Positions 307 to 18,676 of a stretch of 25,587 nt of DNA are shown piece by piece. Both the position numbers and the translations under genes were made by a program. Every line of letters begins with the position of its first letter. Within the stretch, counting starts at the first letter, position 1. The notes beneath the pieces are model-generated. The model worked only from the letters and a program-made list of their open reading frames with translations, was not told the origin of the DNA and ran no database searches. Origin of the DNA: Phycisphaerales bacterium (GTDB lineage Bacteria > Planctomycetota > Phycisphaerae > WQYP01); NCBI GenBank assembly GCA_027451365.1, contig DAIDJN010000010.1:1-25587 (forward strand). The letters run 5' to 3'.

Positions 307-2019
307 CTACCAGGCGTGTTTAACCTCTATACGCTTAACCTCGAATGAGAATACATCCATAGTCATCCCATGCCAACTTAAATGATATACATTGCCTGTT
401 TTTGTGTAATGTTTAGTGGTCATGGTGGTGCCGGTGTTTAGGTGAAAGACATAGCCGGTGATCGGGCCGAGGGCGGCCGGCGGCGTTGGAATCTTCGAGG
501 AAATCCAGACTATCCTCACGTTGGATTGCAGGTAATATTGGGTTGCGTTATTTGATATGCTCACGGCGTTGATCAGCGAAAAGTCACGGTAGCCCAGCGC
601 TCCTTGCTCGGTAAACACCAACCCGGAAGGCAGCGTTACCGCCAGCGCTTTGCCTTCTGCTGCTTGTGGGGCGACGCCAACAACGACGCCAAAAGCCGCA
701 TGGGTTTGACGAGGTTCCCAATGAAGTACAACTGGGTTTTTGGAATAAATCCGGACCCTTTGCCACGGGGCCTGCGAGTTGCCCGCTATGATCCGCAAAG
801 CCGCATTTTTAAGCTTGCCGATTTGGCGATTAAATCTTCGTCTTTCGCTAACTTCCGCCAGCATTTCAGTTTTCGGGACCTGCCACTCGACAGCGTTGGG
901 GTATAAGTTTTTTTGCTCCTGAAGTGCGGCCGCGTGTTCCTCCTGTTGGCGCAATCTTCCTGCCCGATAGAGAGCCCCATACCAAGCCCTGACAGCCTTT
1001 ATTTCTGAAACCTGATGCCTTGAATAGTGGGATTGCTCCCGCCAAAAAAGGCGGCCCTTAATTATGTTGTAACCATTTGTTGCCGGCACTACACTCCGCA
1101 CTCGGAAATTTACGATTACGGGCTTCCGAATAAGCTTCAAATTGAGGGCGCGGGCGGAGGCGGGCAATTCGGCGGCCGTAGCCCGGGGCAGTTTTGGAAA
1201 AATAACTTTGAGCAGGCCCTCAAGATTAGAAATTCCTTTACGCTTCTGGGAAAATTTCGCTACCAGTCCCGGCCATTGACTTTGCGGAACTGCTCCCAAA
1301 GTTCCCGATTCATCGGGACGCGAGGGGAATAATGGTGACGAACTAACCGGATTGTTGGCAGAGTCGGCGTTAAGGTCGGCTCTTGCCACCTTGGACGCCG
1401 CGATATCATTTGCTATAGCAAGGGTGTTCTGGTCGCGCCTGTCCCGTTTTATAAGCGTATTTATTGCCGCGATCTCTTGCTCGTCGGCAGCCAATATTGC
1501 ACGGTGGCAGCGCTGTTGGGCGTTTGACCATTCTCTTAGGCTTCGCCGTGTGGCGGAGTTACGATTAATTACGGCGGTTTTGATGGACATGGGTTGCTGG
1601 AAACTGACGGTCTGGAAATATCCGAGCAAAGAGAGCGGGGTGGCCGGTGTTAGGGCCCCATACCTGGCGGTGATTTTCCCGACCAGACGGCGTGCCGCAT
1701 TTGCCGTGCTCACTCCGCCAGGTCCCGTTGGATTATTGGCAATCGAGTGGAGAACGGCTATCTCTGCCTTGTCCGCATGCAAAAGGGCCGCGACGCATTG
1801 CCTTTCCGCGGCTGCCCGCTCCTGCAAGGCTTTGGTAACGGCGGCTTGTCGATTCTTATTCAGCGATTCGATTGTAATGGGTTTGTTATTTCCAACGAGC
1901 AGCGTGCTTCCACCCATCGCTGAAAGGGGAAAATCGAACCATGCGGTATCCGTAAAAGCGGGAATTGCAGATCCGATGAATAGAGCAATCGCCCAACGGG
2001 ATATTGATTTTCGAATCAT
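307..2019 (-). CDS. Predicted secreted hypothetical protein, 570 aa, with an internal ~48-aa helical duplication and a small C-terminal beta-rich domain
   Basis: Long ORF. The N-terminus is signal-peptide-like (MIRKSISRWAIALFIGSAIPAFT). aa46-93 and aa142-189 align. The C-terminus is YVFHLNTG...VFSFEVKRIEVK. Confidence 0.8.
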   Translation of the reverse strand: MIRKSISRWAIALFIGSAIPAFTDTAWFDFPLSAMGGSTLLVGNNKPITIESLNKNRQAAVTKALQERAAAERQCVAALLHADKAEIAVLHSIANNPTGPGGVSTANAARRLVGKITARYGALTPATPLSLLGYFQTVSFQQPMSIKTAVINRNSATRRSLREWSNAQQRCHRAILAADEQEIAAINTLIKRDRRDQNTLAIANDIAASKVARADLNADSANNPVSSSPLFPSRPDESGTLGAVPQSQWPGLVAKFSQKRKGISNLEGLLKVIFPKLPRATAAELPASARALNLKLIRKPVIVNFRVRSVVPATNGYNIIKGRLFWREQSHYSRHQVSEIKAVRAWYGALYRAGRLRQQEEHAAALQEQKNLYPNAVEWQVPKTEMLAEVSERRRFNRQIGKLKNAALRIIAGNSQAPWQRVRIYSKNPVVLHWEPRQTHAAFGVVVGVAPQAAEGKALAVTLPSGLVFTEQGALGYRDFSLINAVSISNNATQYYLQSNVRIVWISSKIPTPPAALGPITGYVFHLNTGTTMTTKHYTKTGNVYHLSWHGMTMDVFSFEVKRIEVKHAW

Positions 2020-2187: not shown

Positions 2188-3009
2188 TCAATGAACATGA
2201 CGGGCAATCTTAAGTGCCACCGCAGTTAAGACAATGACCCAATACACGAGCAGCATCGCATATCCGGACAGCGAAATAATTCCAAGGACCAATCCCGCGG
2301 TGGCCAAACCATTTCCATCGGTTGTTTTGAGCTTTCGATTGCCGCGTGACGTTACAGAGGCGAAAATTGTCGCCAAGGTAGCGCACGCCAATCCAATGAC
2401 AAGAATCACCCAGAACACCAGCGCCATTCCTCGCGAATAAACTAACAGTACAAGGCAAGCTGGTACTGCTGCTGGGACAATCAGGCTCGCGATGCCAAAA
2501 ATAAGTGATGCCACGCCATATCCATGACAACTGGGCGATGCGTCCGCGTTCGCTGGGGCTTGTCCGGCGGGCGGCACACTCGGCAGCAATCTTTGGTAGC
2601 ACGAGGGGCAGATATAACGTCCTCGGTCGTTAAAGAGCTGCGCCGCTGGCAATACGCTTCCACATGAAACACAAGCGATCACCGGGCCATTAAATGGCTG
2701 TGATTGTGTGTTGCCTGCGGCCGGCGTTGGTACGTCAGTTGTTACGTCATTTGAATCCGCCGAGTCCTTAACCGCATAAGGAACTTCCTCCGCAGCCGCG
2801 GCTTGTGGTCCAGGCAATATCGTGGCCCGCGGAGCCGCATCAGGTAGAAGGCCCGGCACGGCCGTGGCCGGGGTCCAGTCAACTTTATCTCTGGATACTT
2901 CGTGAATTCGAGATAACATGCCCAGCTTCACTAACCGCTGGAGAGCCGTAAAGTCAAAGGGGCCGGATATTTTTCCCCTCAATCGGACAAAATAAGTCTC
3001 ACTGGCCAT
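2188..3009 (-). CDS. GYF_2-like domain + CxxC zinc finger + DUF4190-like membrane domain protein (~273 aa)
   Basis: Start moved to ATG 3009, which has AAGGAG 8 nt upstream. N-terminus YFVRLRGKISGPFDFTALQRLVKLGMLSRIHEVSRDKVDW matches the GYF_2 pattern (GPF...L..L...G.L......W). CVSC-x17-CPSC finger. ASLIFGIAS ... GNGLATAGLVLGIIS is DUF4190-like, with about 3 TM helices. Confidence 0.8.
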   Translation of the reverse strand: MASETYFVRLRGKISGPFDFTALQRLVKLGMLSRIHEVSRDKVDWTPATAVPGLLPDAAPRATILPGPQAAAAEEVPYAVKDSADSNDVTTDVPTPAAGNTQSQPFNGPVIACVSCGSVLPAAQLFNDRGRYICPSCYQRLLPSVPPAGQAPANADASPSCHGYGVASLIFGIASLIVPAAVPACLVLLVYSRGMALVFWVILVIGLACATLATIFASVTSRGNRKLKTTDGNGLATAGLVLGIISLSGYAMLLVYWVIVLTAVALKIARHVH

Positions 3010-3049
3010 TTTGCATTCTCCTTCTGCCGTGTACATGTTTTCCGGCGGT

Positions 3050-5971
3050 TCATTTTCGCGGGCTGGTAATAAATACAAACGAGCCGTTGGTTATTTTGGA
3101 ATGCGCGGCCGGTGTCATGACCCATGTTCCTGACCGCATCACGCCAATCTGCTTTAGCTTATACCCCGTTTCATTCTCGAGAACGACCCATGCGATATCG
3201 CCTTCTTGTGGCGGCACGGCACAATGGAGTGTCGGGGAATCTACCTTCGTTTTTCGGTAGACGGCCAGCGACGCGATGTTGAAGCAGGCCAGCCGGGCCA
3301 TTGATTGGTGCGAGCGATTGGCCTTGGCAATTAGTGCCTTAAGGTCTGGCAACTTATTGAACGCCCGTTTCACACCGCGGGCAACGTTCCTGGGAATTGG
3401 CTCGCCGGCGGGGTACAGCCAATTGACGTTGTCCAGATCCAACTGTGTCAATTCTGAGGCAGCGTTGGAGAACGCGACCATTTTTGCCTTCCCGAGGGTC
3501 CGCTTATTGAGGGTAATGGCATCCAGCAGGAGCAGCCCCCGAACAACTGGACTGGTTGAAGAATAAAGTTGAGCGCCCATCAACTGCATTGTCTTAAATC
3601 CGATGGTGTCCCATTGGTCAAAGCGCATTGAATTAATCGCGTGAAGCAGACGGCGGGATAGCTTCGATTGCGGGCTGCGTGTCGGTTTTGCCGAATTGAG
3701 TTTAATCCCGGATGGAAGGTCGATCGTGGTCAGGTGTCTGATATCCGCAGAAGTGACGGCATTGAAGGATAATTCCACCAAGTTGCCAACCGTAATTTTG
3801 TTGATGACCGCATCGGGTAATACGTAATACATATTGCCATTTGACGCGGTCCAAACGTCAAGATTTCGCAATAAGCGATTATGAAGGACCGTAGAGAAGC
3901 GTCCTTTCCACGGGCCGCCGCTCGCGGTGGCAGACAGCCCCTGCGTCAGGTAGGTCGAATATGCGTTAGCCTGAATCGTGACTGGCGAATCGGGGAAGGC
4001 TTTGAGATATGTAGCGATTGCCGCGACGCGTGCGCGGGCTTCCGCTCTGGCCGGATTGAGCAAATGGCCGGACCATGGCCTCTGAAGGTCGGCCCAGGCG
4101 CTGACGGCCTTTAAGCCCGGAACCAACTGGGCTAATTGCCGGACCCTTAAGCGATGGCGTCCGTTGGGCTGCGAGCTTTGGTAATTGTTCAATGCCGCAA
4201 TATAGGCGGCTACGGAAAGTGGCGGGGAAAGCACGCGCTGGTAAAGTGAGTCATCAAAAATAATACGGTGAATTGACGCATCCCGCCTGGCAAGCGTGGC
4301 CTGCAATGAAGCGATTTCCGCATTGAATATGGGTGGGGAAACACCTTTGGTCGCAGACAATAATTTCAATTGGATATTCAACTGGTCCAAGACCTTGGCA
4401 GCGGCTGGGGCATTTTCAGTGATGACATTTTTAGACAAGCGAGAATAAATCGAATTGCTTAAAGCGGTTACGGCCCTGTTGAAGGCCGCGTTGCGCAACG
4501 CTTGCTGCTGCTGATCGTATTCGAGCCGATGACGAAACCATTTGTTTACGGAGGCTATCTCCGAAGGGCGGAGGGCGATTGGCTTGGCCTCTTCCATTAG
4601 TTGTAATGAGCGGGGACTGCCAATCCTCATGCCCATAGCCCGGTTGTAAAGCGACGCGAAGCGTCTGGCTCGCACTTTTTCCGCAGCGACGGCGGCCTTT
4701 AGCCTGGCCGTTCCCGCTGAAATATTCGGGATGTCGCGGATAGACGCGGACTGCTTGGCCAACATGGCCAGAATTTGTTGGCCGTCGGTTAAATCTCCAT
4801 TTTTGACGACCTTTTCGATGGCGGATTTAATGACATTGTTCCAGCCGTGAGCTTGTTGATTGCGAATGGTGAGATAGGTGAAAAGTCCCGCCCCCGCTAA
4901 TATGACCACAGTTAAGGCGGCGACCCCAAAATAGATCATTCTGCGGCGCCGTCCGGCTTCGCGGTCCCGACGCGCCATACATTGTTTATAACGGACCTCA
5001 AGGTCCGGTGGAATCGGAAGAGGTATGCGGGTTGTGGCTTTATAGGCTTGTTGAATAATAAGCGTTGCCTCGTCGCGGTCTATCGCTTGTTCGAGCCGCG
5101 CGCAGGCCGCGGCAAAATCCTGCTGCTGCGTCCGGACTTGATCCAGCCCATCAATCCAGTTTTGAACCGCATTGATTCTCTCAATTATATCTTCCGCGGG
5201 CTTTTGATCCCGCATTATATTTGCGCAGGCCGCGAGCAGTTCTCGGCAGCGACTCTCCTCGGAAGCAGAATAAGCCGCATCCAATTCCGGCAGCAGGCGT
5301 TGCAGGTCGCGTTCTGCTTCGGCTGCCTTAAATTTATTCAACCGGGCGTCTACCTCGCGCACCATGTCCACCGGCACAGGGACCCTCCAGCGGTCGGAAG
5401 TCAATTCACTTTTCAAGCTTACCAGCACGCCGCCATTTACATCGCCTGATGCAAGCACGCGGCGCACTTCAGCAATTCGGACGGTTTCAAAAAGGCGTAT
5501 ATCTTCCTCCCAGAAGGATGCGTTGGTGTCAAACTTGGCGATTTCCCGCATAACAACGAGCCGAAGCGATAGCGGTGCCGCAGAAAGCGCAAGCGTGCGG
5601 TGTTTTGCCAGCAATACCGCAATCGGCTGAACGGCGGCATAGGCTGCATTAATTGCAGCTGCGGAATCCACATCCAAAGGTGGTGCTTCGGGCAGGTCAT
5701 ACTTCAGGCAGAGTTGTTGCCAGTCACCTTGCCCGGAAAAATCCAGAATGCTTAGCTGATCAAGAACGTTTGGGCTGGCCTCTGCCAAATGAACCGCCTC
5801 GGTACGCAGGTTCTGCCGCAGCAGTTGCGAACAACGGCGAATGCGATCATTGACGGCGCGGCATAGTTCGGCGTAGCTAAGGGCCAAGTCGCGCAAATCG
5901 GGCGTCACGGTTTGATCCTGTGCCGTGAGCACGTCGCGTAACTTATCCACTACTTCCTGTGCTTCAGCCAT
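3050..5971 (-). CDS. 973-aa bitopic, largely alpha-helical hypothetical protein
   Basis: Long ORF with a GGGAG RBS. Acidic helical N-terminal ~340 aa, then RRRR followed by a single TM (MIYFGVAALTVVILAGAGLFTYLTI, ~4865-4939), then ~600 aa predicted extracytoplasmic. Confidence 0.85.
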   Translation of the reverse strand: MAEAQEVVDKLRDVLTAQDQTVTPDLRDLALSYAELCRAVNDRIRRCSQLLRQNLRTEAVHLAEASPNVLDQLSILDFSGQGDWQQLCLKYDLPEAPPLDVDSAAAINAAYAAVQPIAVLLAKHRTLALSAAPLSLRLVVMREIAKFDTNASFWEEDIRLFETVRIAEVRRVLASGDVNGGVLVSLKSELTSDRWRVPVPVDMVREVDARLNKFKAAEAERDLQRLLPELDAAYSASEESRCRELLAACANIMRDQKPAEDIIERINAVQNWIDGLDQVRTQQQDFAAACARLEQAIDRDEATLIIQQAYKATTRIPLPIPPDLEVRYKQCMARRDREAGRRRRMIYFGVAALTVVILAGAGLFTYLTIRNQQAHGWNNVIKSAIEKVVKNGDLTDGQQILAMLAKQSASIRDIPNISAGTARLKAAVAAEKVRARRFASLYNRAMGMRIGSPRSLQLMEEAKPIALRPSEIASVNKWFRHRLEYDQQQQALRNAAFNRAVTALSNSIYSRLSKNVITENAPAAAKVLDQLNIQLKLLSATKGVSPPIFNAEIASLQATLARRDASIHRIIFDDSLYQRVLSPPLSVAAYIAALNNYQSSQPNGRHRLRVRQLAQLVPGLKAVSAWADLQRPWSGHLLNPARAEARARVAAIATYLKAFPDSPVTIQANAYSTYLTQGLSATASGGPWKGRFSTVLHNRLLRNLDVWTASNGNMYYVLPDAVINKITVGNLVELSFNAVTSADIRHLTTIDLPSGIKLNSAKPTRSPQSKLSRRLLHAINSMRFDQWDTIGFKTMQLMGAQLYSSTSPVVRGLLLLDAITLNKRTLGKAKMVAFSNAASELTQLDLDNVNWLYPAGEPIPRNVARGVKRAFNKLPDLKALIAKANRSHQSMARLACFNIASLAVYRKTKVDSPTLHCAVPPQEGDIAWVVLENETGYKLKQIGVMRSGTWVMTPAAHSKITNGSFVFITSPRK

Positions 5972-6007
5972 AAAGGCTCCCTTTGATTCGTCCAGATTCT
6001 GAATTTC

Positions 6008-7231
6008 TTATTTTTTTTGGGCCATTCCTGCCGGTCGCGTGGCGCGGTGCGGTCTTTTGAAGGTAACCGTCTCCAGCACGGGCCCGCCGGGGTAAAGTTC
6101 AACGCCGAGAGACAATAACCGCAGGGATCGGAGGCGCTTATCCCGTGCCGCGATAATCGCCAGGATTGCCTTCACTTTTCTAAGATCATGGCCCAAGCCG
6201 ACAGCGCCCGTGTTTTGCTGTTCCAAAATCAATCGTAGTGTGGCGTTTAGCTGCGATTTTATTGAGGGAACCAGCCGAACTTCGTGACCGTAATTACATA
6301 TGAGGTTTCCATGCACAAGACGAAAAATCAGGCAGCTCAATTTTACAGCGGCTGGCTTACCGTCGGGCCTTGGGCGGCTGGTAAGGTTAATCCAGACTGC
6401 TTTGATACGACGATTGGTGGAGGTAGCCAAGCCAACAAGATGAATCCTTCGTCGCCCCCACATCCGGAATGATTCGAGTGCCAATGATAAATCTGGTCTG
6501 GTTCCAACTGCCACCAAATCCGGCGGAACCTGGGTCATGATTGAGGATGGGGTGGAAGGCCCCAGCAATACGATCTTATCCCGCGAGAGGGCGGGAAGAA
6601 ACTGAATACGTTCCTTTGCTCCACTTTTCAATCGAAAATCCAGTACCATCTTTTCCAACGGGACGCGCCCGCGCCCAATCCCCCGGCCCCCGGCCCAAAG
6701 GGCTGAGCTGGCGTTGATTATTATTTTCCCGGTCAGATTATTAATGCTTATTTCAGCGGCACGAACCGATTTTGGCGCGGCAATCGGGCTGCTTACGCGC
6801 GGGTTCCAATAAATGGCGAATTTTGCTTTTTTGGTTCCGAGAAAATGTATCTTGTACCAGTGCTGCGGCTTCAATCCGCCGGCGTTATCGTCGATTGTTT
6901 TTGCGAACCGGAGGATTGAGAATTGTCCGTCCTTGACATCCGGTGGAAAGACTACGCGAAACTGCTTAACGTCGGTAATCCGAACGGCTCTATGAGCATT
7001 GTTTGTACCGGTTGCAAGCAGCAGGCCGCCACCTTTGGGCGGTGCGAAAATCGGCTTGTTGATGACGATCAGGCTCTCCGATACGGCATTGCCATTCGTG
7101 CCCGTTGCAACGGGCGGAGGCATCGGGGCGGATAGAACGTTGGCGACCTGTAATAATGTCAGAACCAGAGCAATCACGCTGGCGAACAACCATAATGCGG
7201 AACAAGTTGAGAAGACGGATTTGATGTTCAT
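6008..7231 (-). CDS. Exported or membrane-anchored hypothetical protein, paralog of the C-terminal domain of the upstream GAP1-like protein
   Basis: N-terminal hydrophobic segment. ATGA overlap with the upstream stop (7228-7231). Colinear motifs shared with 7228..8298, including the identical VELYPGGPVLE. Confidence 0.85.
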   Translation of the reverse strand: MNIKSVFSTCSALWLFASVIALVLTLLQVANVLSAPMPPPVATGTNGNAVSESLIVINKPIFAPPKGGGLLLATGTNNAHRAVRITDVKQFRVVFPPDVKDGQFSILRFAKTIDDNAGGLKPQHWYKIHFLGTKKAKFAIYWNPRVSSPIAAPKSVRAAEISINNLTGKIIINASSALWAGGRGIGRGRVPLEKMVLDFRLKSGAKERIQFLPALSRDKIVLLGPSTPSSIMTQVPPDLVAVGTRPDLSLALESFRMWGRRRIHLVGLATSTNRRIKAVWINLTSRPRPDGKPAAVKLSCLIFRLVHGNLICNYGHEVRLVPSIKSQLNATLRLILEQQNTGAVGLGHDLRKVKAILAIIAARDKRLRSLRLLSLGVELYPGGPVLETVTFKRPHRATRPAGMAQKK

Positions 7232-9672
7232 TTTCCAGCCCCCTTGAAAATAAACCGCTCGAGCACAGGTCCCCCGGGGTAAAGTTCAACCCGGAAGGTA
7301 ATGCTTTTCAGAGATTTTAAACGATTCAGGCAGGTGGCAACATTAAGTTCCTCATCTCTTAAACGCGCTAAGTTTGGTTTGTGTCGAGCCCTTCTGATTT
7401 GAAGTAGTCGCAAAATCGCTGTTTTTTTCGATTTTGTAATGTGTTTCTTATTATCGATTTCGATTTCCGTTTTGATGGAATTTAAAAGCCTTTTCTCTTT
7501 TTCGATTTGTTGTTCCAGTTCATTTTCTCGCGACTTGAGCTTTTCGGCAAGTTGCCTGTAATTATTGTGGATAAATCCATCCGATGTAACCCAGAACTTG
7601 AGCGTCTCTTTTTTTTCGGATTGTTTAAGTCGGATTAAAAATGACTGCTTGTCTGCTTCGGAAAAGGCATAGCTCTTCATGTTCGAAGGTCGCAGAGATT
7701 CTTTTACCAAGCGAATGTTCGGAAATAAATTTCCACTTGGTAAACCTCCTTGCGGCCCTATATGGTTTGCAGACGGGGATTTATTATTAAGCTGGACAAT
7801 TTTCGGGGGATTCAGTCGATCAGGGGCCTCCGGGCCGGTAAGGAATTGGAGGCGATCGGTTTGGCCGTGATTCAAATGAAAATCAATAACCATTCGTCTT
7901 AAATAGCGAAGCCCTGTCTCGCTTCGTTGGCCGATCTGTTGGATCACAATCGATCTCCCGCTTTCCGGCATCTGAATGAGGGCAAGATTGGCGTACTTCT
8001 TAGACCCAACCAGTAAAAGTCCGGCGCCCGAGTCCCCACTCTTGGCCCAACGCACGTAAATCGACTCGCCGGGCTGCATTTTAATGTTATACAGTTTGCC
8101 ATCGCCATTAACGTCGATTTTTGCATCTGCGCCCGCCAGCGAAAAATTCCCAACATCGGTTGGCACGGGAGGGAACCTGACCAGCAAATTTGTGGCGCCT
8201 TGCGTCGAAATGGGACTTAAGGGCCGGTCGCGGGTTTCCAGCCCGGCAGCTGGGGGCGAGGCGAAAACTGTTGGGAGATTATGTATTGAAAGCGATTCTT
8301 TATTTGTACTAGGAATTGGCCTTGTTGATGGAGCTTTTCCAGTTGTTTTATTGGGCGTGGATTCGACGAGAGGCGTATGCTTAGTTGTATGAGCGTGATC
8401 GGTATTGACAGAATTTTTAGTTGTGGCTGGCGCGGTATTGACAGCAAGGTTGGCTGACCCAGTTGACCTGGTTGTTACATGCTTAGTCTTCAATTTTAAT
8501 TCTTTCTTTTTCGCTGAAATTGGTGGACTGACTATTACCATCGCTTGGTGCAGCTGGGCCAGGGATCGCAACATTTTGGGTGCGAGCAGTAAACCGATGA
8601 CCAGAATGATAATCAACGCCACGGATCCCAAAACCGTGGGCAAAACCCAGCGCCGTTTTCGTCTTGGGTATTGGTCATTGCCTGATTCATCCAGATTAGA
8701 TAGCGGGGAATAGCCGGTTGCGGCTTGATCCGGTTGCGGTACAGGTGCGAGATCGAAAATCTCCGGCTCGGCAATCATGGCGATGCCGGGCTTGGGTATT
8801 GGTACTTTTGGCAAAGAACCTGCGAGTGCTGAATCTTCACGGTTGACAACGGAAATGCGCAATTGCGATATATCAATCAAGGTGCCACCGCGGGCGGCTT
8901 GATGGCATGGGCCGTCGGGGGCTTGAGGCTTTGGGCGGGTCAAGTCAAGAATGGACTTCCGGTCAAGGTCGCCCTCTGTCGCTGGGTTGCCGGCAATTAC
9001 GCCCCGCCAATGGCACTTGATACCGGCTACGGGCAATCCAGTAAAATAAGTGCTGAAGGCGATCCGCCAGCGCGCTTCCGGCGGCAACAGAGCCAGCACC
9101 TCGGCAAACAAATCCAGCATTGGCGTACCTGGATTGCAAAGAATATGCACCGGCGCTTCCGGCTGGTCACAAAACCGCTGGAGTAAATCGCCGGCCCAAC
9201 CTGCGTCACCGGTGACACGTTCCCAGACGGTACAACGGGCGGGCGCGGAGTCGCCTTTTGGGATTGGGGTGGAATTATCAATCCAGCGCGACTCGCCGCT
9301 CCAGCCTTCCAACATCAGGCCTGGTTTTTGTAATAGCCATGCCGGACCAGCTGCGGCCAACTCGGCTGTATCCAGCACTATGAAATGGGCTAGCTTATTT
9401 GTACGCCCGGTGTAGTCGGCGGGAGCCGAACTGATTCGGGCTATTACCCGCACCAGACGCCCGCGATCGGGAACAAGGTAGTGGCAGAAATTGACGGGAT
9501 TTTGGCCATAATTGGCGTGACCAGCCATAAATAAATGACGATAGCCACTTAAGGATTCCAATACGGTGCCGAGGCTGGGTGACATTTGTCGGGACATGGC
9601 GACGGTGCAGAAGCCGAGGCTGCCCGGCTTAAGCCCCTTCCGGGCAGACGTATAAATAAGTTCCAGTCCCAT
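7228..9672 (-). CDS. GAP1-N2/GAP1-M-like (GTPase-associated protein 1) domain protein with TM helix, Thr/Ser/Pro linker and extracytoplasmic C-terminal domain
   Basis: N-terminus ELIYTSARKGL..G..GFCTVA...LESLSGYR...DYTGRTNKLAHF and LLPPEARWRIAFSTY match my recollection of GAP1-N2 and GAP1-M motifs. It lies directly downstream of a GTPase. TM at aa342-364 follows RRKRR. Confidence 0.75.
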   Translation of the reverse strand: MGLELIYTSARKGLKPGSLGFCTVAMSRQMSPSLGTVLESLSGYRHLFMAGHANYGQNPVNFCHYLVPDRGRLVRVIARISSAPADYTGRTNKLAHFIVLDTAELAAAGPAWLLQKPGLMLEGWSGESRWIDNSTPIPKGDSAPARCTVWERVTGDAGWAGDLLQRFCDQPEAPVHILCNPGTPMLDLFAEVLALLPPEARWRIAFSTYFTGLPVAGIKCHWRGVIAGNPATEGDLDRKSILDLTRPKPQAPDGPCHQAARGGTLIDISQLRISVVNREDSALAGSLPKVPIPKPGIAMIAEPEIFDLAPVPQPDQAATGYSPLSNLDESGNDQYPRRKRRWVLPTVLGSVALIIILVIGLLLAPKMLRSLAQLHQAMVIVSPPISAKKKELKLKTKHVTTRSTGSANLAVNTAPATTKNSVNTDHAHTTKHTPLVESTPNKTTGKAPSTRPIPSTNKESLSIHNLPTVFASPPAAGLETRDRPLSPISTQGATNLLVRFPPVPTDVGNFSLAGADAKIDVNGDGKLYNIKMQPGESIYVRWAKSGDSGAGLLLVGSKKYANLALIQMPESGRSIVIQQIGQRSETGLRYLRRMVIDFHLNHGQTDRLQFLTGPEAPDRLNPPKIVQLNNKSPSANHIGPQGGLPSGNLFPNIRLVKESLRPSNMKSYAFSEADKQSFLIRLKQSEKKETLKFWVTSDGFIHNNYRQLAEKLKSRENELEQQIEKEKRLLNSIKTEIEIDNKKHITKSKKTAILRLLQIRRARHKPNLARLRDEELNVATCLNRLKSLKSITFRVELYPGGPVLERFIFKGAGK

Positions 9673-9720
9673 GCTTTTCCCGTTCTAATTCCCATTCCAC
9701 GTCGCGACCGAACGGCGTTG

Positions 9721-11013
9721 TTATAGAACCAGTTGGCTGGTGGTCCATTGTGACAGTCCATACAAAACCGGGACGGTAACCCAATGTGGCCTGATATCTC
9801 GCGGACGGATGGCCAATAAATTCGCATCACTCGGATGTGGTTCTGGGGCATGCCCCAAGGAACTGATGGGGACGTAAATAACTACCTTGGATACGGATTC
9901 GGCCGTTGACACAATTTCCGGCGTTAGCGTCACAAGCAATTGTCGTACCTTGGAGGATACCCGATTGATGCGGGCTATATCTACCTTTGCATTGTCCAGC
10001 CCGGAATCGGACAAATGAGGCTCCGCCATGATGTCCTCGTCAATCAGGGGGGCCCAGATATCTGATTTGCTTACGCATATCACCAAGGGGCGATCTGATC
10101 TTGTTTGGGGGCCAAGGCCACCGTAACGTCGCATTCGCCCGGCGGCTTCGTTCAGGAGCGACTCCTGCCGCAGCGTTTTCCGGCCGACCTTAATTTGCGG
10201 GTCAGTGCTAAACGCACCGCATTTGGCTCTTACACGCGGGTCTTGGGTGGGATCAAATAAAAATAGAATCAGTTGTGCCTTGCCAAGATGCTGGGTGACC
10301 GGTCGGTCCGGTGTGTCCGCGCCAGGCAGGTAGCTTTCACCTGCGTTGTCATATACGCACACGACACGCGAATAATCAGCGGTATACGGAAACCGAGGGT
10401 GGGATGGAGTCGGTTTAAGCGAAAAAAGAAAAGGCCTGGTATACGCGGTGCTCTGACCGCCTATTTTTACCACATCATATATCTCCCCTTGTTCTTCCGT
10501 CTTGGCAATGTAGGTAAGCGCATCGGGGTCGGCAGCAAGAAAAAGCTGTTCCTCATAGCCGTTGAGAAGGTTATTGGCGGCGGCATCGATATCGGACCAT
10601 GCCAAGGAGAATTTGGCGGGAAGGGTTCGTCGCAATTCCCAGACCATGGCGGCAAGGAAATTGGATTTTCCACTGCCGGGGCCACCAATGACGGAAATGA
10701 AGAGTGGTGTGTTCTCAATGACCTCGCGCGGCAGTGGCAGGTGGCATCTCGGGCAGGCCAGGCGGTGGCAAATCGTTCCATTTGCGTCCAGTGCCTGCCC
10801 TTGCGGCGTGAAGCGGCTGGGCAGAAAACGTGAGGGGTGGTCTTGGCCGAGAATGGGGTCACCTATCAGGGCCGGGTGGGAGCTGATCCAGAGAATGTCT
10901 TCAGGGTGGGCGATGTGCCAACAATGCGGACAGGTAATCTTGGATCGCAATCGAATGACAGATGCTGTGTTCGTTCGCCCGCCGTGAGCCCGCCCATCTG
11001 CGCCGTGTGTCAT
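9721..11013 (-). CDS. TRAFAC-class P-loop GTPase (DO-GTPase2-like) with N-terminal split zinc ribbon
   Basis: G1 GGPGSGKS, candidate G2 Thr (AKT), G3 DNAGE, G4 SKSD, G5-like PISSLG. N-terminal CPHC...CPRC. GGAG RBS 7 nt upstream of the ATG. Confidence 0.85.
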   Translation of the reverse strand: MTHGADGRAHGGRTNTASVIRLRSKITCPHCWHIAHPEDILWISSHPALIGDPILGQDHPSRFLPSRFTPQGQALDANGTICHRLACPRCHLPLPREVIENTPLFISVIGGPGSGKSNFLAAMVWELRRTLPAKFSLAWSDIDAAANNLLNGYEEQLFLAADPDALTYIAKTEEQGEIYDVVKIGGQSTAYTRPFLFSLKPTPSHPRFPYTADYSRVVCVYDNAGESYLPGADTPDRPVTQHLGKAQLILFLFDPTQDPRVRAKCGAFSTDPQIKVGRKTLRQESLLNEAAGRMRRYGGLGPQTRSDRPLVICVSKSDIWAPLIDEDIMAEPHLSDSGLDNAKVDIARINRVSSKVRQLLVTLTPEIVSTAESVSKVVIYVPISSLGHAPEPHPSDANLLAIRPRDIRPHWVTVPVLYGLSQWTTSQLVL

Positions 11014-11149
11014 TGAAAATCTCCATTCCCTCGCTGGCCGTAACAGGCAAACATTACCTGATCCGATTCGCGGTAGGAAGGGTAAACCGGAGCTGCCAAT
11101 ATCGTGAGCCGCTCCCGCATTTCCTCAAAAAGCCGTAATATGTCGGCAA

Positions 11150-11178
11150 AGGATATAGCGATGGGCGGCAAAAATCAA
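11150..11178 (-). promoter_or_regulatory. Putative sigma70 promoter for the GTPase operon
   Basis: Minus strand TTGATT-17 nt-TATCCT. Confidence 0.4.
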
Positions 11179-11225
11179 TGGAACCATTCAGTTTTTCCCG
11201 CGCGGGTGAATTCTTGCACCGAACA

Positions 11226-11253
11226 TTGACAATGAATCTGGTTATCATATTCT
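11226..11253 (+). promoter_or_regulatory. Putative sigma70 promoter for the ZnF/ExbB/ExbD operon
   Basis: TTGACA (consensus -35)-16 nt-TATTCT, 48 nt upstream of ATG 11302. Confidence 0.55.
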
Positions 11254-11301
11254 TATATGAAAATCTATAACCCCGCATAAAAATTCGGACAGGGGATTGA
11301 A

Positions 11302-12414
11302 ATGTCAATTACGGTTGTCTGCCATCGATGTGGAACGCTGACGGATGCGCCTGAATCTTCCGCGGGTAAGCAATACAAATGCGGTCATTGCGGAAATGCG
11401 ATTCAGGTGGCTGGGAGCGCTGGCCAATCGTGCAGCGTCTGCCAGGTCTATGTCTCACCAACCGAGGGTGTCAGAGATGCGGCGGGTAGCCTTTATTGCG
11501 CGAAGTGTCAGGCAACCAACCGACCTCCCGAAGATGAAGTGGTGTCCGTGGGGCAAACCGGCGCAGCCGGGGGGCCCGGCCCGTCAGGTGAATTAGCAGC
11601 CTGTGTGGTATGCAGGGCGATTACTGCGCGAATGAATCTTTGTAATTTTGACGGACAATTGGTATGCAGCAAATGTGCGATCGAGGCGGGTTTGGGCACG
11701 ATGTCCTATCGAATTAAAAAATTGCGACGCGGCGCGGGGGCTATTATTTACCGGTGCCCGAAATGCAAGGGCGAGTTGGAATCCAGTTTGGACGAGGCGG
11801 GTAAGGAAGATGGCTGCCCCCGGTGTGGGCAGTTATTTGATGTTCCGGGGCGTTACGAATCGTTCAAGGCCGCCAACACTGCACGGGCCGATGATTCAGC
11901 GAAGACGGCATCGGTGAGGGCGGTTCGCGGAATTCCCAGCGGTGAAAAAAAATGGATTGTGATGGGGGCAATATTGGGTTTCGCGGTTCTAGTGCTGGTG
12001 GTGGCAGTCCTTTTTTTATTGATGCGCGAGGGTAAATCGTCTGCAATAGCTAAGCCGGCGACTGCCGGGGCTGCATCCGCTACGCAGAATGGGGTTGCCA
12101 AGGCACCCAAGGCGAAGGCTGCCGCAACAACCCAGCCACGCACGACAGCGGCTGCGCGCGCTGCGGCAATGGCTAAGGCCAAAGCCGCGGCCGCAGCAGC
12201 AAAACTCGCTGCCGCGATGGCAGCGATGGCTAAGGCTAAAGCTGCAGTAGCTGCGGCACACGCAAACGCTAGGAAGGCGGCAGCTTTGGCGGCTAAGGCT
12301 AGGGCTTCGGCCGAGAACGCGGCCGGCGGTGGAGGGACAGCCGCGGCAGCTGCATCAACTCCGGCGGACCAGCAGGGCCGCAAGGCCGCGTTACCGCAAC
12401 CAGAGCCGAACTAG
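11302..12414 (+). CDS. Four-zinc-finger bitopic membrane protein with TolA-like Ala/Lys-rich helical tail
   Basis: Eight CxxC motifs form four pairs (aa7-30, 44-69, 101-125, 152-175). TM at aa218-241. The tail contains AAAMAKAKAAAAAAKLAAAMAAMAKAKAA. Confidence 0.8.
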   Translation: MSITVVCHRCGTLTDAPESSAGKQYKCGHCGNAIQVAGSAGQSCSVCQVYVSPTEGVRDAAGSLYCAKCQATNRPPEDEVVSVGQTGAAGGPGPSGELAACVVCRAITARMNLCNFDGQLVCSKCAIEAGLGTMSYRIKKLRRGAGAIIYRCPKCKGELESSLDEAGKEDGCPRCGQLFDVPGRYESFKAANTARADDSAKTASVRAVRGIPSGEKKWIVMGAILGFAVLVLVVAVLFLLMREGKSSAIAKPATAGAASATQNGVAKAPKAKAAATTQPRTTAAARAAAMAKAKAAAAAAKLAAAMAAMAKAKAAVAAAHANARKAAALAAKARASAENAAGGGGTAAAAASTPADQQGRKAALPQPEPN

Positions 12415-12483
12415 TCAACGGGAAACATTGTTTAATAATCCTGTTATGAGAAACAGTTGTTGGCCAATATTTTGGAGCATGGG

Positions 12484-13509
12484 ATGGAATTTGCAACCTG
12501 TAAGACATGTGGGAATGAGCTTAGAATCGATGCGGAAACCAAGGCGGCGCGCTGTGACATTTGTGATGGGCCAATAATGCCTAAACGCAACAACGGTATG
12601 TTTGCCGATCGTATGGGGATACTGGCCCTTGGACTTGGCGTTGCATCCGCTGGAATATTCATCGGGTTAGCCCCGATCCTGCTTCCGCCGGAGTCTGCCT
12701 TGTATTATCTGTTTTTCAATCATGGGTGGGTGCCCTATGTGTGTATCTTGCTGTTTTTCGCAGCGTTCTGGATGCTCATGCTGAAATTCCCGGTTATCAA
12801 TCAGGAATTCCGAATTTTTGAATTGGATTTGCTTCCGTTGGAGCATAATCTGGTCATTGACGCGGCCATGAGTCGAAAGATACTGGCTCGGATCAATCGC
12901 CTGGAACCGAAGCAAAAAAAACGAATCCTGGTATCACGTATTCGCCAGGCATTGATGCGATTTAACCAACTTGGGACCGCCGAGAAACTTGATGATCTGC
13001 TTCGCTACCGTGCGGAAACCGATCTGGCCGCCATGGAATCCAGCTATGCGGCCCCCCGCTTCATCATCTGGGCAATTCCGGTATTGGGATTTGTGGGAAC
13101 GGTTATGGGGATCAGCGCGGGAGTGCAAAATTTCAGCACGCTTATTCAGAACGCTTCCAACCTTTCCGGATTGCGTCATTCTCTCAAGGGTGTCACGTAT
13201 GGTCTGGGCCAGGCGTTTCAGACCACCATGCTGGCGCTGACCATGAGTTTGATTCTTATGCTTATTATGAGTATTGCCCAGCGTCGGGAAGATCATCTTT
13301 TAGCCACCATAGACGAATACTGCGCGGAAAACCTGTTGCAAAAAGCCACACTTGGGTTCGACCAGCCAACCGCGGATGACAATCGGCGTTTGTTGCAGAG
13401 CGTACAAAAGCTGTTGGAACGCCTTGCCGGGCAAACTGTTGAGGTCACGCCGGATACGGGCCTAGGGGGAAAGACAGCCACGGTGGCATCGGAAAGGTCC
13501 GGGAGTTGA
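12484..13509 (+). CDS. MotA/TolQ/ExbB proton-channel family protein with N-terminal zinc ribbon
   Basis: Start moved to ATG 12484, which has GGAG 6 nt upstream. CKTC-x14-CDIC. The signature IPVLGFVGTVMGI resembles TolQ/ExbB PxxGLxGTVxGI. Last TM is LGQAFQTTMLALTMSL. Confidence 0.9.
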   Translation: MEFATCKTCGNELRIDAETKAARCDICDGPIMPKRNNGMFADRMGILALGLGVASAGIFIGLAPILLPPESALYYLFFNHGWVPYVCILLFFAAFWMLMLKFPVINQEFRIFELDLLPLEHNLVIDAAMSRKILARINRLEPKQKKRILVSRIRQALMRFNQLGTAEKLDDLLRYRAETDLAAMESSYAAPRFIIWAIPVLGFVGTVMGISAGVQNFSTLIQNASNLSGLRHSLKGVTYGLGQAFQTTMLALTMSLILMLIMSIAQRREDHLLATIDEYCAENLLQKATLGFDQPTADDNRRLLQSVQKLLERLAGQTVEVTPDTGLGGKTATVASERSGS

Positions 13510-13512
13510 AAA

Positions 13513-14361
13513 ATGGGTAGCCGAAGACGCGCACGCCAGGTGGAAATATTCAATTTTTCCTTTCTGGATATATTGGCCTGCACGATTGGCTTGCTTATCT
13601 TTATCCTTGTAATGATTTTTCTTCTGCAATCTTCCACCCGATTAACGGACTACAAGAAGATTATTCAAAACAAGATGAAAGTCGTAAGAGAAATCCAACG
13701 TGAGACTCAAAGTGCGACTGTTATTGAACAATCAATGAAGGCTCAACTTTCCAAGATGAAGGACGCCCGCGATCCGAAACTGTTGCGATTGCTGCGAAAC
13801 GCTCGGCAAAATATGATGCTGGCCAGAGAGAATTCGGAGGTCAAGGTCAGCGAATTATCCAATCTGGATGCGGAAATTGAATCCCAGCAGGCGGTTTATA
13901 GCCAGGAAACAGTCGTCACGCTGAAGAACCTGCAACAATCACTTACGGCCGCGACGCAAAAATTGGCTCGCTTGCGGCAGCGGGAATTGGCCGAAAAGAC
14001 AAATGATTTTACTTCTCATATGTTTGTCAGGCTGGCGAAAGGCAAGACCGGGGGCGTCTATACTATCATGAACGTTTTGTGCGCTGCGAACGGATTGAGT
14101 GTTCTTAAGGTGGATAAATTAGGCAAGGCAAGCATAGCGTCTGTGACTGATCCCGCGAGCATCGGAGATAACGACTCAGCATTTCAGCAGGCCTTGGTGG
14201 CGCTGCGATCGCACCGAAGGCCATTGGTCATATTTTGGATCAATACGGGCGGGATTAGCGCGTTCCGTCAGGCTAAAGACGATATCCCAAGTGGTATCAA
14301 ATATGGATATGAGCCTGCACTGCACCATTTTAAGTATAGAATTCATTCGGAGGGAAAATAA
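13513..14361 (+). CDS. ExbD/TolR/MotB-like subunit 1 (TM with conserved Asp, coiled coil, C-terminal alpha/beta domain)
   Basis: Basic N-terminus, then EIFNFSFLDILACTIGLLIFILVMI with Asp at the position expected for ExbD/TolR. Starts 3 nt after the ExbB-like gene. Heptad-rich middle region. Confidence 0.75.
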   Translation: MGSRRRARQVEIFNFSFLDILACTIGLLIFILVMIFLLQSSTRLTDYKKIIQNKMKVVREIQRETQSATVIEQSMKAQLSKMKDARDPKLLRLLRNARQNMMLARENSEVKVSELSNLDAEIESQQAVYSQETVVTLKNLQQSLTAATQKLARLRQRELAEKTNDFTSHMFVRLAKGKTGGVYTIMNVLCAANGLSVLKVDKLGKASIASVTDPASIGDNDSAFQQALVALRSHRRPLVIFWINTGGISAFRQAKDDIPSGIKYGYEPALHHFKYRIHSEGK

Positions 14362-15263
14362 TGGGAATTGAAGGCCGTGGCCGAAGTCGCGTGGATTTAT
14401 TCAACTTTTCATTTTTGGATGTGCTGGCATGCACGATTGGGCTACTTATTTTCATTATGACCATTATCGCGATTACGAGCAGTGCACCGAGCAATCAAAA
14501 AGCGGAAGCTAAGCTTGCCAAGATAAATCGGATGCTGAAACGCAACCAGGCCCGGCTTGCGCAGGTGCAGATTGTTGAAAACAATTACGCAGGCCAGTTG
14601 AGGGAAAGGGCTGCCCAGACAATGAATCTGGCGGGGGCGAACAACCATTTGCGTCATAAGATTGCAGAGTTGGTGCGCCAGTCGAAGGAATATGTGGAAC
14701 TGGCCATTCAAACCAAGGGCAAGATAGCCATGGCGCGAAAGCGGTTGGCCAAGGCCAGGTCTTTAAATAACCCAACAAAGGCGGCAAAACTTCATCAGGC
14801 CGTCATGCTTACCCAAGAACAGGTCACGGCGATACAAAAGCAAATTGCAGCCCTCGTAAAATTGAGAACTGATTATGCGGCTCGCTATTATATTCCCGTC
14901 AGGAGCAAGACCAAGCGGTCTGATCTAATGTTCGAGGTCGGCAAAAACAAGATATGGCGGATTGGCCATAAAGATTTCCATTTTAAGGCACTTTTTTTGT
15001 TGAATAGCTGCGAATGGACTCGGCGCGCAAATGCTGTACCCAAAACGCTGGCGGAGTTCATTTCCGCGAAGCATCCGCCGCAGTGCCTGGCGAATCGTCG
15101 CCCGACTCGCATGCTGTTACGCTTTTTCGTCAGGCCTGGTGGTTTTAGTACTTACCGGTCAATAGAGATTTGGGCTCGCAACAAAAAATATGCCGTGAAT
15201 TGGTATCCGGGAAATTACGGTCGCACATTAGACTTTACCTTCGGATCGGTGTCGCGCCAATAG
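14361..15263 (+). CDS. ExbD/TolR/MotB-like subunit 2, paralog of the preceding gene
   Basis: DLFNFSFLDVLACTIGLLIFIMTII is nearly identical to the TM of the preceding gene. TAATG stop/start overlap. C-terminal FFVRPGGFSTY...VNWYP parallels FWINTGGISAF...YGYEP. Confidence 0.75.
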   Translation: MGIEGRGRSRVDLFNFSFLDVLACTIGLLIFIMTIIAITSSAPSNQKAEAKLAKINRMLKRNQARLAQVQIVENNYAGQLRERAAQTMNLAGANNHLRHKIAELVRQSKEYVELAIQTKGKIAMARKRLAKARSLNNPTKAAKLHQAVMLTQEQVTAIQKQIAALVKLRTDYAARYYIPVRSKTKRSDLMFEVGKNKIWRIGHKDFHFKALFLLNSCEWTRRANAVPKTLAEFISAKHPPQCLANRRPTRMLLRFFVRPGGFSTYRSIEIWARNKKYAVNWYPGNYGRTLDFTFGSVSRQ

Positions 15264-15579: not shown

Positions 15580-17472
15580 TTACCGGCTGGCGGGCGGGGC
15601 GGTTCTTTGCCATACACGCACGCGCCAAGGCGAGAAAAAGTAATACCGCCATTGGAAATACCAGCGGAATCGCTTGACAGCCACGAGTTTCCAGCCGGGG
15701 CCCAGCCGATGGCTGATGGCGGAAGTGCTAAGGTCGCCGGTATGCACATCCCCGAAGCGGTCTGCCAGAACCAGAGTGTGAATTTTGGGGTTATGGCGGG
15801 CCATATTGATGGTTCGCAGCCAGGCGATGGACCAGTCCGGCAGAAGAGTATAGGCGGGAAAATCTGCATATTGGCGAGGATCCAGCCCCCAGACGTTGTT
15901 GTCAGGCAGTATGCGCACATGGCGCAATTGAAGAAAGGAAATGGCCGGGTCATCAAAGGCATGATTGGTTTTGGAATAGGCTATAAACATTCCGCCCTGA
16001 TCTTTCGGATTGTAATATTTAATCGCCACGCGGTTGACGAATCGCCATGGCTCACCACGACAGATTGTAGAATTGGTAAGGGATGATGCGGTCATAACCA
16101 GCAATACCAGAGCAATCACGGTCCAGCGGAAATAGCGGAAGGGAAGTCGGGCCAGCGAAGCGCCCAGCCACAATACCCAGGCGATGGTCAGAAACCCCAT
16201 GTAACGCGGAAGCCAGAAAATAAAATGCGGGAACAGCGACCACGGGTCTTTGGCGGGAAGCGAAGCCAATCCAAAATAAATCATGGGGAGTGCCAGCCAG
16301 ATCAGCACTTGCCACCATCGCCCGGCTCCACGGCGTTCCGCGTCGGCCAGCGTTTTGAGGTTCTGGCGACCGGTTTTGGTCAGCCGCTGCCAGGGAAAAA
16401 GCCCCAGCAGCATAATGGCGAAAAGTCCCCATGCCACCGCAAATTCCACCGTTGAAATAAGCGGCAACGTACGCGTGGCCAAATGCGGCTGATAGAGCGG
16501 CCCGAGTTCAAACCAACTGATCATTCGCGGTGTCGGCAGCGCGGAGGGCCATAAATATCCGAGAAGATCAATCGTTGGCAAGCCAAGAACCGCCCTGTAA
16601 TTCATTCCATTGAACCAGCTTACCCACTGAAGATTTCCAGCCGTGTGATGAAACAAGACACCCTGAAACCAACCGCTTTTCCGGGTATACCACCAGGCGG
16701 TGAAACAGCCCGCCGCACCGGCGGATGTCAGCCACAAAGGAATATCCCAGGCGCGCATACGCGGTTTTGCGACCAGCCAGATCAATTGGATCGGAAGCAG
16801 AAAAAGCCCCATGAAATCCATTCCCACCATGCACAGCAGGCTGAGCAGATATAACAGGCCCCAGGGGAAGTGTCGCCCCCCCTGCCATCGCAAAAACAGA
16901 GCCATATTCAGCGTGACAAAAAAATAAAATGCGCTGTACATTTTCAGATCGCGGCTGTAATAGACGAAAAACGGATTGACCGCCACCAGCAGCATGATCA
17001 GAAGCGCTGTGCGGCGCCCGGTAAACTGTCGCGCCAGAAAATAGGCCGCCGGCACATTAAGCCAGCCCAAAAACGCACCCGGGAACCGCAGGACCGATGC
17101 GGTAAAAATGGTGCCCCATGGCTGGTGAAAGACATGATGGAGCAGTTGCACCCATCCCCACAGAAGCATATACCAACCTGGCGGAAAGCCCTGGCCCTGA
17201 AGCATTTGAAAAATGAACTGGAAACTGCCGCTGACGCGAATGGTGGTGGCCGTTTCATCACACCAGAAAGACTGGTAACTCAATCGCCAGAACCGCAGGA
17301 AAGCGCCAAGGGCAAGGATGAAGGCAAACGAAGACCAGAACCGCACGCCCGGCCGCCGCAGGAAATTTCGACAGCGCACAGCCGCGCCTGTTTGGCTGGA
17401 TTGTGGAGTTTCATTGTTTGCGGGCGACCGAACCTGATTCGACCCGTCCGCCGTTGACAAAATTGCACGCAT
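15580..17472 (-). CDS. GT-C fold glycosyltransferase (GT39/GT83, PMT/ArnT-like) polytopic membrane protein
   Basis: LRFWRLSYQSFWCDE (acidic DE motif after TM1), PPGWY, LRFPGAFLG and NPFFVYYSRDLKMYS motifs, plus many TM segments. The true start may lie further downstream. Confidence 0.85.
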   Translation of the reverse strand: MRAILSTADGSNQVRSPANNETPQSSQTGAAVRCRNFLRRPGVRFWSSFAFILALGAFLRFWRLSYQSFWCDETATTIRVSGSFQFIFQMLQGQGFPPGWYMLLWGWVQLLHHVFHQPWGTIFTASVLRFPGAFLGWLNVPAAYFLARQFTGRRTALLIMLLVAVNPFFVYYSRDLKMYSAFYFFVTLNMALFLRWQGGRHFPWGLLYLLSLLCMVGMDFMGLFLLPIQLIWLVAKPRMRAWDIPLWLTSAGAAGCFTAWWYTRKSGWFQGVLFHHTAGNLQWVSWFNGMNYRAVLGLPTIDLLGYLWPSALPTPRMISWFELGPLYQPHLATRTLPLISTVEFAVAWGLFAIMLLGLFPWQRLTKTGRQNLKTLADAERRGAGRWWQVLIWLALPMIYFGLASLPAKDPWSLFPHFIFWLPRYMGFLTIAWVLWLGASLARLPFRYFRWTVIALVLLVMTASSLTNSTICRGEPWRFVNRVAIKYYNPKDQGGMFIAYSKTNHAFDDPAISFLQLRHVRILPDNNVWGLDPRQYADFPAYTLLPDWSIAWLRTINMARHNPKIHTLVLADRFGDVHTGDLSTSAISHRLGPGWKLVAVKRFRWYFQWRYYFFSPWRVRVWQRTAPPASR

Positions 17473-18662: not shown

Positions 18663-18676
18663 CTTCCGGGCCACAT

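Follow-up and report, generated by a model that had tools for sequence, protein, structure and literature searches.

Ion motors of the 5:2 type drive flagellar rotation, uptake, division, gliding and Zorya defence. For bacterial DO-GTPase systems, Kaur 2020 (PMC7159879) predicts a role in conflict and describes planctomycete versions in which the system is linked to GYF proteins that bear trypsin or transmembrane (TM)-rich regions; this and the other papers cited by PMC number are represented here by the covered parts of their text, and comparisons with them hold to that extent. The DNA under study, a contig of 25,587 nucleotides from a Phycisphaerales bacterium (DAIDJN010000010.1; assembly GCA_027451365.1), brings the two together: in its positions 2188-15263, an operon with a DO-GTPase (the left arm) lies back to back with an operon (the right arm) that encodes an ExbB-type channel and two Asp-bearing subunits, D1 and D2. 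This contig, hereafter the window, is the entire contig C10 of the host genome G000, which is 93% complete (G, C and L numbers denote genomes, contigs and loci). The locus belongs to the GAP1-N2 DO-GTPase class, with which it shares a zinc-ribbon GTPase with a Walker B Glu, a GAP1-N2/M gene directly downstream and TM fusions (PMC7159879), and it also matches the planctomycete subtype, the GYF protein carrying trypsin in L030 and L082 and three TM segments in the window. It appears to differ in its third core gene, which encodes a mostly helical protein of 973 amino acids (aa), here called LONG, while Kaur 2020 describes an FNIII-repeat component; it differs also in the added proton-motor module. 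In the left arm we thus have the GAP1-N2 DO-GTPase system in its planctomycete form, with LONG in addition, and both arms are parts of a single system.

The evidence for a single system comes from gene neighbourhoods, which an earlier note, made from the window alone, had proposed to survey. Mapping of 95 GTPase loci (15 plus the best 80 of at least 578; some are close kin, and the counts are not independent) gave a long-flank set of 57 with at least 8.6 kb downstream, in which GAP1 was found in 54/57 and a GYF gene in 49/57. ExbB lay downstream of the core on the same strand in 29/57, a lower bound given the 10-kb flank, commonly in the order GTPase, GAP1, LONG, GYF, ExbB, D1, D2. Besides this layout, which recurs in many genomes, the arms are divergent in the window and L066 and convergent in L252, L307 and L353, so that three layouts in all keep them together, as the earlier note had supposed for one system; the whole operon is also present in the cultured Allorhodopirellula solitaria CA85 (L093) and Botrimarina colliarenosi Pla108 (L143). 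A reverse test started from metagenome ExbB loci, at least 551 in number, of which the best 80 were taken, none used in building the profile. With at least 4 kb upstream, GTPase, GAP1 or LONG was found in 18/18 loci scoring at least 265 bits vs 0/12 below; with 2.5 kb upstream, core genes were found in 24/25 vs 0/14. All 27 low scorers lacked them. The 265-bit threshold was chosen after the scores were known and coincides with tree clades. The top ExbB subtype (at least 333 bits; next score 258) occurs in 10/301 phylum genomes, with LONG in 10/10 and the GTPase in 8/10; seven of these ten gave rows to the ExbB profile, G066, G154 and G164 being independent of it. In the host family, both genomes with a close ExbB also have the GTPase. 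GTPase, GAP1, LONG and GYF are thus inherited as a block, to which ExbB, D1 and D2 are tied, most tightly to LONG.

LONG is the third constant core component of the GTPase loci, counted as such because it is present in 53/57 long-flank loci. It is also likely the closest genomic partner of the motor, because the motor occurs with a shortened LONG alone: in G066, G154 and G332-G334, a stand-alone cluster in the order LONG, ExbB, D1, D2 encodes a LONG without ~290 N-terminal residues, and no GTPase lies alongside. In L328, GTPase, GAP1 and motor are present and LONG is absent. The earlier note had listed the protein correctly in the left arm and missed it as the likely conserved partner of the motor. 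Its relatives number 3608 at 50% clustering; across 42 members no consistent Pfam family was found, FNIII being likewise unmatched in those 42. The AlphaFold model, mostly helical, is confident locally (predicted local distance difference test 88.7, predicted template-modelling score 0.51); in the fold search no Foldseek match reached E<=0.001, and the other matches were spectrin-like or helical-bundle chains (best Z 10.7). The core component defined here thus comes from a family that numbers thousands and has neither a name nor a fold match.

The channel subunit of the motor is of the ExbB/TolQ type, as had been read from the sequence, with a Pfam MotA_ExbB match above cut-off and the pore-type Thr residues kept. 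The Thr residues in GTV (T215) and FxTT (T256, T257) are invariant in 17 rows and, judged by motif, match ExbB Thr148/Thr181; the protein has 350 aa here and about 290 aa across the family. As for the two subunits described earlier as Asp-bearing and ExbD/TolR-like, the TM Asp is invariant (D19 of D1 in 23/23 rows, D20 of D2 in 18/18 rows) and the head appears TolR-like, but neither has a match to Pfam ExbD (PF02472) and a long coiled coil is added. D1 and D2 share 60% identity over their first 42 residues, and their heads match each other with an HHalign probability of 95.7, the probability against canonical ExbD being 22.7 (P 9e-4). In the D1 model, a helix (12-163) is followed by three strands, helix, strand, helix and strand, an order that fits ExbD/TolR; against TolR 5by4 it gives Z 7.4 and a root-mean-square deviation of 5.1 over 91/105 residues at rank 45/50, TolR being the sole Ton/Tol chain among the 50 listed structural matches. 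The model is suggestive of a TolR-like fold of the head, at a Z within the range of common folds. Otherwise, the D1 fold searches matched mainly coiled coils and ribosomal S11-type chains, the D1 head matched only unnamed clusters, under 0.9, in Atlas, and PDB sequence searches gave coiled coils only or no match. In full-length close homologues D1 has 276-294 aa and D2 292-305 aa, and this tight range suggests that D1/D2 may serve as a ruler spanning the periplasm; the extended geometry of the coiled coils is something we infer, because the D1 monomer model has the coil folded back on itself.

The remaining left-arm proteins bear out the GTPase-GAP1 core with an exported paralog and the GYF-zinc-ribbon membrane protein of the earlier note, and in the profile annotation that it had proposed, GAP1-N2, GAP1-M and MotA_ExbB exceed the Pfam cut-offs and GYF_2 and DO-GTPase2 fall below them. 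Zinc-ribbon cysteines (C28 and C87 motifs) are present in the GTPase, whose Walker motifs are GGPGSGKS (A, at 110) and YDNAGE (B, at 221), with SKSD at 315; neither the Walker B Glu, E226, nor the CxxC cysteines vary among 33 aligned GTPase sequences, the DO-GTPase2 match (E 3e-5) is under cut-off, and many homologues carry PF19993. Some GTPases elsewhere are fused at the N terminus to FHA, Ser/Thr kinase or GYF domains (L026, L029 and L028). The GAP1-like protein matches GAP1-N2 (E 6.5e-27) and GAP1-M (E 9.3e-12); no GAP1-C match is listed for it or five homologues, and GAP1-M is followed by a linker and TM helix. Its outer domain changes fast: relative to the L064 protein, identity is 73% in the GAP1 domains and 30% in the outer domain, the GTPases being 84% identical, and BLAST sorts the outer parts of 73 GAP1s into 56 clusters vs 2 for 79 LONG sequences. 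An Atlas search with the GAP1 outer domain gave no usable match. The exported duplicate of this domain aligns with the C-terminal part of GAP1 at 25% over 374 columns (E 3e-12) and was seen only in close relatives (L064, L066). The linker of GAP1 is Pro-rich (median fraction 0.154 vs 0.076 in the domain; 77 proteins), and a bacterial GYF domain binds a Pro-rich sequence in Myxococcus (PMC11135422). The GYF_2 match in the window reaches 24.8 bits, slightly below the 25.8 cut-off, and across loci the outer or membrane part of the GYF proteins is variable (trypsin, TM-rich, vWA), those in L030 and L082 being double GYF-trypsin proteins.

The motor itself comes from a wider family. Sister ExbB+D+D modules without the core are widespread in the phylum, some near kinases, FHA or trypsin proteins, and therefore the system draws on the wider motor family of the Planctomycetes-Verrucomicrobia-Chlamydiae (PVC) group. 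ExbB with two coiled-coil D genes and no GTPase is found in L155, L157, L160, L161 and L162, also in L144, L150 and L248, and an ExbB match is present in 14/15 genomes of family f9; this core-less family is possibly a housekeeping envelope motor. In L146, L159 and L147, other sister motors are intermingled with genes for Ser/Thr kinase-PEGA-FGE, FHA-trypsin or kinase-Hsp70, which suggests repeated pairing with signalling modules. The linked ExbBs form two clades, that of the window lying in a small clade separate from the main one. We do not claim two independent recruitments of the motor, a single origin not being rejected (approximately unbiased test, p-AU 0.157; 22 vs 18 rows from 135).

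In the reading that we prefer, to which we give an even chance of being correct, the locus encodes one machine that spans the envelope and serves surveillance or conflict, its core being constant and its ion-driven motor optional, working in a Zorya-like manner. Going by family features, a pentamer of ExbB would surround the Asp helices of D1 and D2 (5:1:1) and conduct protons. The length-conserved coiled coils could place the TolR-like heads as far as ~18 nm out in the periplasm (by arithmetic, at 1.5 A per residue), where the stalked heads would act in place of a TonB/TolA helix. The GAP1 outer domain and its exported copy may recognise damage to the envelope, an adjacent cell or a foreign particle, and LONG may carry the signal through the inner membrane; GAP1 and the GTPase would receive it, with the GTP cycle of the latter setting an on/off threshold. 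The GYF protein would bind the Pro-rich GAP1 linker and recruit variable outputs (trypsin-like proteases, kinases, vWA and TPR proteins), and the motor, where present, would engage LONG, either for mechanical sensing of the envelope or to power the response, as ZorAB does in Zorya. In a bolder form, which we regard as tentative and rather more apt to fail than to hold, this would be a new class of 5:1:1 proton motor, with a heterodimeric plug as ~18-nm force stalk gated by the DO-GTPase via LONG, serving a PVC immune or contact-response machine; the juxtamembrane segment of LONG would be a docking unit reused by TIR effectors, and the motor might have been recruited twice.

A conflict or recognition role is favoured by the patchy presence of the system, by the speed at which the GAP1 outer domain changes and by links to defence domains that turn up here and there. 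The GTPase occurs in 16/301 phylum genomes and 11/24 family genomes and was not found in the sole genome of the same genus. In L246:7020-9908 (G162:C128), a protein of 962 aa joins Hsp70 and TIR to the juxtamembrane helices and TM segment of LONG (227-370; E 2e-31) in a genome without a GTPase match, and this LONG segment is a possible effector-docking module; two other carriers, G230 and G141, are weak, G162 alone being convincing. Two ThsB-type TIR genes and a gene for an 8xMP membrane protein lie upstream of the GTPase in L027:3894-5346, and an Mrr nuclease gene follows one motor. In G340, a second full operon (L243:16882-18625) has a GTPase cut to 182 aa beside two transposase-like ORFs (open reading frames; identified by eye), the longer of which has no Pfam match.

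Several observations weigh against this reading. (i) No adjacent ExbB was found in 28/57 long-flank core loci; among 40 GTPase genomes picked for lack of an adjacent motor, the subtype lay elsewhere in 7, distant paralogs only were found in 14 and no match to the ExbB profile in 19, one of them being G001, a genome in a single contig. Of the single apparatus proposed earlier, the link between the arms stands, but the motor is an option that about half of the core loci do without. (ii) In motor-less loci LONG retains its full outer part and therefore is not solely a motor servant. (iii) ExbB tracks the GTPase tree far less closely than LONG does, the tree-distance correlations over 41 loci being 0.90 for GTPase-LONG, 0.50 for GTPase-ExbB and 0.56 for LONG-ExbB, all three inflated by shared ancestry. 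(iv) Among 301 genomes the Hsp70-TIR fusion was met once, the window encodes no recognisable nuclease, NADase or pore effector, and the flanks are mostly housekeeping (299/343 flanking ORFs scanned, no control flanks), with few defence-type matches (the L027 genes, RAMA, PDDEXK_3, bAvd, four transposases and one resolvase). (v) That DO-GTPase systems act in conflict is itself predicted by computation, and the cross-arm contacts and signal path set out above are proposals.

Among the alternatives, a contact-dependent machine between cells (for kin recognition, adhesion or attack) in aggregate-forming planctomycetes, with the GTPase placing the motor and variable outer domains selecting the partner cell in the manner of the Myxococcus focal adhesion, seems to us unlikely, yet it is the one that fares best. 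It would share with AglR5QS a parts logic of heterodimeric plug, GTPase and zinc-ribbon/GYF adaptors (PMC11761067, PMC11135422), and the variability of the GAP1 outer domain suits it equally. Single-pass vWA proteins are encoded in 10 motor loci of other lineages, none being found in the window, and in the motor-less L068, L072 and L075 (also L356) LONG is followed by genes for a pilus-type ATPase, a prepilin peptidase and TadE-like proteins, with FHA and GYF genes upstream. However, the locus has no SHLS-type transducer and no TonB_C domain, the Roadblock/MglB family was not found in G000, and there is no conserved outer-membrane adhesin among the recurrent neighbours.

Somewhat less likely still, in our estimate, is a GTPase-regulated Ton/Tol-like device for uptake or envelope remodelling, in which the D heads on their stalks would tug at a lipoprotein or at the cell wall. 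The intact channel residues and the commonness of GTPase-free sister modules in the phylum speak for it, as does a lipoprotein of ~200 aa that accompanies 10/29 motor loci vs 0/28 motor-less ones (5 of the 10 seeded its profile). This family, with a linker, a helical hairpin and a conserved C-terminal strand, is encoded upstream of the GTPase or of the shortened LONG, but not in the window. The patchy presence of the system and its absence from the congener disfavour a housekeeping role; moreover, G000 has a separate canonical ExbB-ExbD-ExbD set (C40:113803-115329) and a separate TonB_C protein (C77:8130-9338), and neither a TonB-dependent barrel (PF00593) nor TolB_N (PF04052) was found in this genome, in which two OmpA-domain genes sit on other contigs.

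A motor for gliding or crawling is very improbable, since against a parts list analogous to Agl-Glt stand the many core loci that are missing the motor, the lack of a Glt-type transducer and NCBIfam GltJ matches that cover TM or low-complexity sequence only (21.7 bits vs a cut-off of 450). Hardly more can be said for motor genes that merely travel beside the core with no functional coupling, as either half is found without the other and the agreement of the ExbB tree is the weaker, but the link is kept through three layouts, distant lineages and both ExbB clades, and with LONG alone. Of the roles listed in the earlier note, motility is thus the least supported, and the sensing of contact or of invaders, to which our preferred reading belongs, the best.

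Table 1. Features of the locus in window coordinates, with lipoprotein examples from other loci
Feature	Position	Strand	Remarks
DO-GTPase (type 2), predicted cytoplasmic switch	9721..11013	-	Zinc-ribbon cysteines and Walker motifs
GAP1-like single-pass protein	7228..9672	-	GAP1-N2 + GAP1-M, Pro-rich cytoplasmic linker, TM 346-364, fast-evolving outer domain
GAP1 outer-domain duplicate, exported or N-anchored	6008..7231	-	Paralogy to GAP1 C-terminal part
LONG, 973-aa single-pass conserved core protein	3050..5971	-	All-helical cytoplasmic 1-340, TM 346-364, helical rod 370-580, mixed alpha/beta C-terminal part
GYF_2 + zinc ribbon + 3 TM (DUF4190-like) adaptor	2188..3078	-	Pfam GYF_2 E 1.9e-5
Divergent intergenic region, 288 bp	11014..11301		Sigma70-like candidate TTGACA, 16 nt, TATTCT at 11226-11253 (+)
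Four-zinc-ribbon single-pass protein, Ala-rich tail	11302..12414	+	Eight CxxC motifs, 46% Ala tail
ExbB/TolQ-type channel subunit, distinct subfamily	12457..13509	+	Pfam MotA_ExbB (PF01618) E 1e-9
D1, Asp-bearing subunit	13513..14361	+	D19 in the TM helix; coiled coil of ~125 residues; head probably TolR-like
D2, paralogous second Asp-bearing subunit	14361..15263	+	D20, coiled coil and head homologous to D1
570-aa ORF	307..2019	-	168 bp downstream of left arm, same strand; signal-like N-terminus
~200-aa lipoprotein examples	L073:9352-9975, L021:10666-11184, L242:5908-6453		14 more

The layout of the window (Table 1) agrees with the earlier description of nine ORFs in two packed operons that diverge from one gap, the overlaps between genes within an arm reaching 28 bp and the gaps at most 49 bp. 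A hydrophobic TM or signal segment was confirmed in eight of the nine products, the exception being the GTPase, and no TonB-dependent receptor, TolB or Pal family matched any of 13 scanned window proteins, again as described. All nine genes are single-copy in G000, where the sole paralogies are those of GAP1 with its exported duplicate and of D1 with D2; the named close homologues are from Phycisphaerae and Tepidisphaeraceae. The sigma70-like site in the divergent region is only a candidate, as the scan found 9 sites vs 12.4 expected. G+C content drops to 0.46-0.50 at 6500-8500 and 13500-15000, stretches that cover the GAP1 outer domain, its paralog and D1/D2, and is ~0.55 elsewhere. Membership of the 570-aa ORF in the system is doubtful, no homologue being found across 96 GTPase loci and no family above cut-off. 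The right flank (15580-23656) contains a PMT-type glycosyltransferase gene (weak Pfam match), tRNA-Tyr (18580-18662) and a gene for a MauE-thioredoxin protein, besides ORFs that we take to resemble NADH dehydrogenase C, transhydrogenase and RecO.

For the four-zinc-ribbon protein of the right arm, a TolA-like label had been suggested and is not supported. Neither Ser-x3-His nor any TM His is present in the single-pass proteins of the window, and neither is apparent among the GAP1 and LONG TM helices listed. Close homologues occur only in two near relatives and end in other domains (RDD in L066, a further globular domain in L244); on this sequence evidence the protein is a lineage-specific variable receptor and not TolA. 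The wider analogy with TolA, GltG and GltJ fails likewise, the locus having no TonB_C domain and the GltJ model scoring far under its cut-off.

The locus appears to be a recurrent motor-bearing variant of the predicted DO-GTPase system and, as the earlier note had supposed, apparently undescribed, the link being found nowhere in the literature searched, which leaves subscription papers mostly outside its scope. The main text of Kaur 2020 names no MotA, ExbB or TolQ, and the covered parts of the supplement text of Kaur 2020 and Attia 2024 no MotA, ExbB or ExbD; neighbourhoods of this kind may be listed in Figure 6B and Figure 1-source data 1 of the former and shown in fig. S4 of the latter.

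Compared with known ion motors, the locus shares most with four. (i) With Zorya ZorA5B2 (PMC11946911) it has in common an ion motor of the 5:2 type, predicted here, cytoplasmic partners and a patchy distribution, and ZorA profiles match the ExbB pore helices (best E 2.5e-7; ~90 residues of 461-1063 profile positions). It differs in that the pentamer subunit has no cytoplasmic tail of ~70 nm, the long coiled coil lying outside and on the dimer subunits, in its heterodimeric plug and in having a GTPase module as partner; PADLOC ZorB, C, D and E find no match among 14 proteins, and D1/D2 have no OmpA-type peptidoglycan-binding match. (ii) The ExbBD-TonB and TolQRA motors (PMC12905483) show the same pattern of pore Thr and TM Asp and, apparently, a similar TolR-like head, but the ExbD/TolR linker of ~20 residues has become ~125 helical residues, and the SHLS helix is missing. 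Neither PF02472 nor TonB_C is found in the D subunits or the locus, respectively. Four residues before the conserved TM Trp, Phe presumably replaces Ser relative to those motors, by the spacing that we assume. (iii) The vWA-linked PVC motors (PMC12204202) also combine tolQ with two different tolR-like genes, and vWA single-pass genes lie near motors in our loci too; however, their transducers are SHLS-bearing vWA proteins, or vWA is fused to the Asp helix, whereas the vWA TM helices examined here have no His, and the covered account mentions no GTPase, GAP1 or coiled-coil subunits. (iv) Myxococcus AglRQS-Glt with MglA (PMC11761067, PMC11135422) likewise combines a single TolQ-like subunit with two TolR-like ones that differ from each other, and has a GTPase and zinc-ribbon/GYF adaptors; here, the GTPase is of the DO type and not MglA, no TonB_C transducer (GltG/GltJ) accompanies it, the D subunits are stalked and the motor is optional.

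To conclude, the system is most Zorya-like in logic and AglRQS-like in the composition of its plug, and the features that define Zorya, Ton/Tol and Agl-Glt are, as far as tested, missing from it. Single Asp and Walker-motif changes in the cultured carriers offer a concrete handle on the DO-GTPase 'conflict' systems; if the proposal is true, stalked heterodimeric plugs that work without a TonB-type transducer and are linked to a GTPase switch would add a new mode of coupling to those described for the 5:2 motors.

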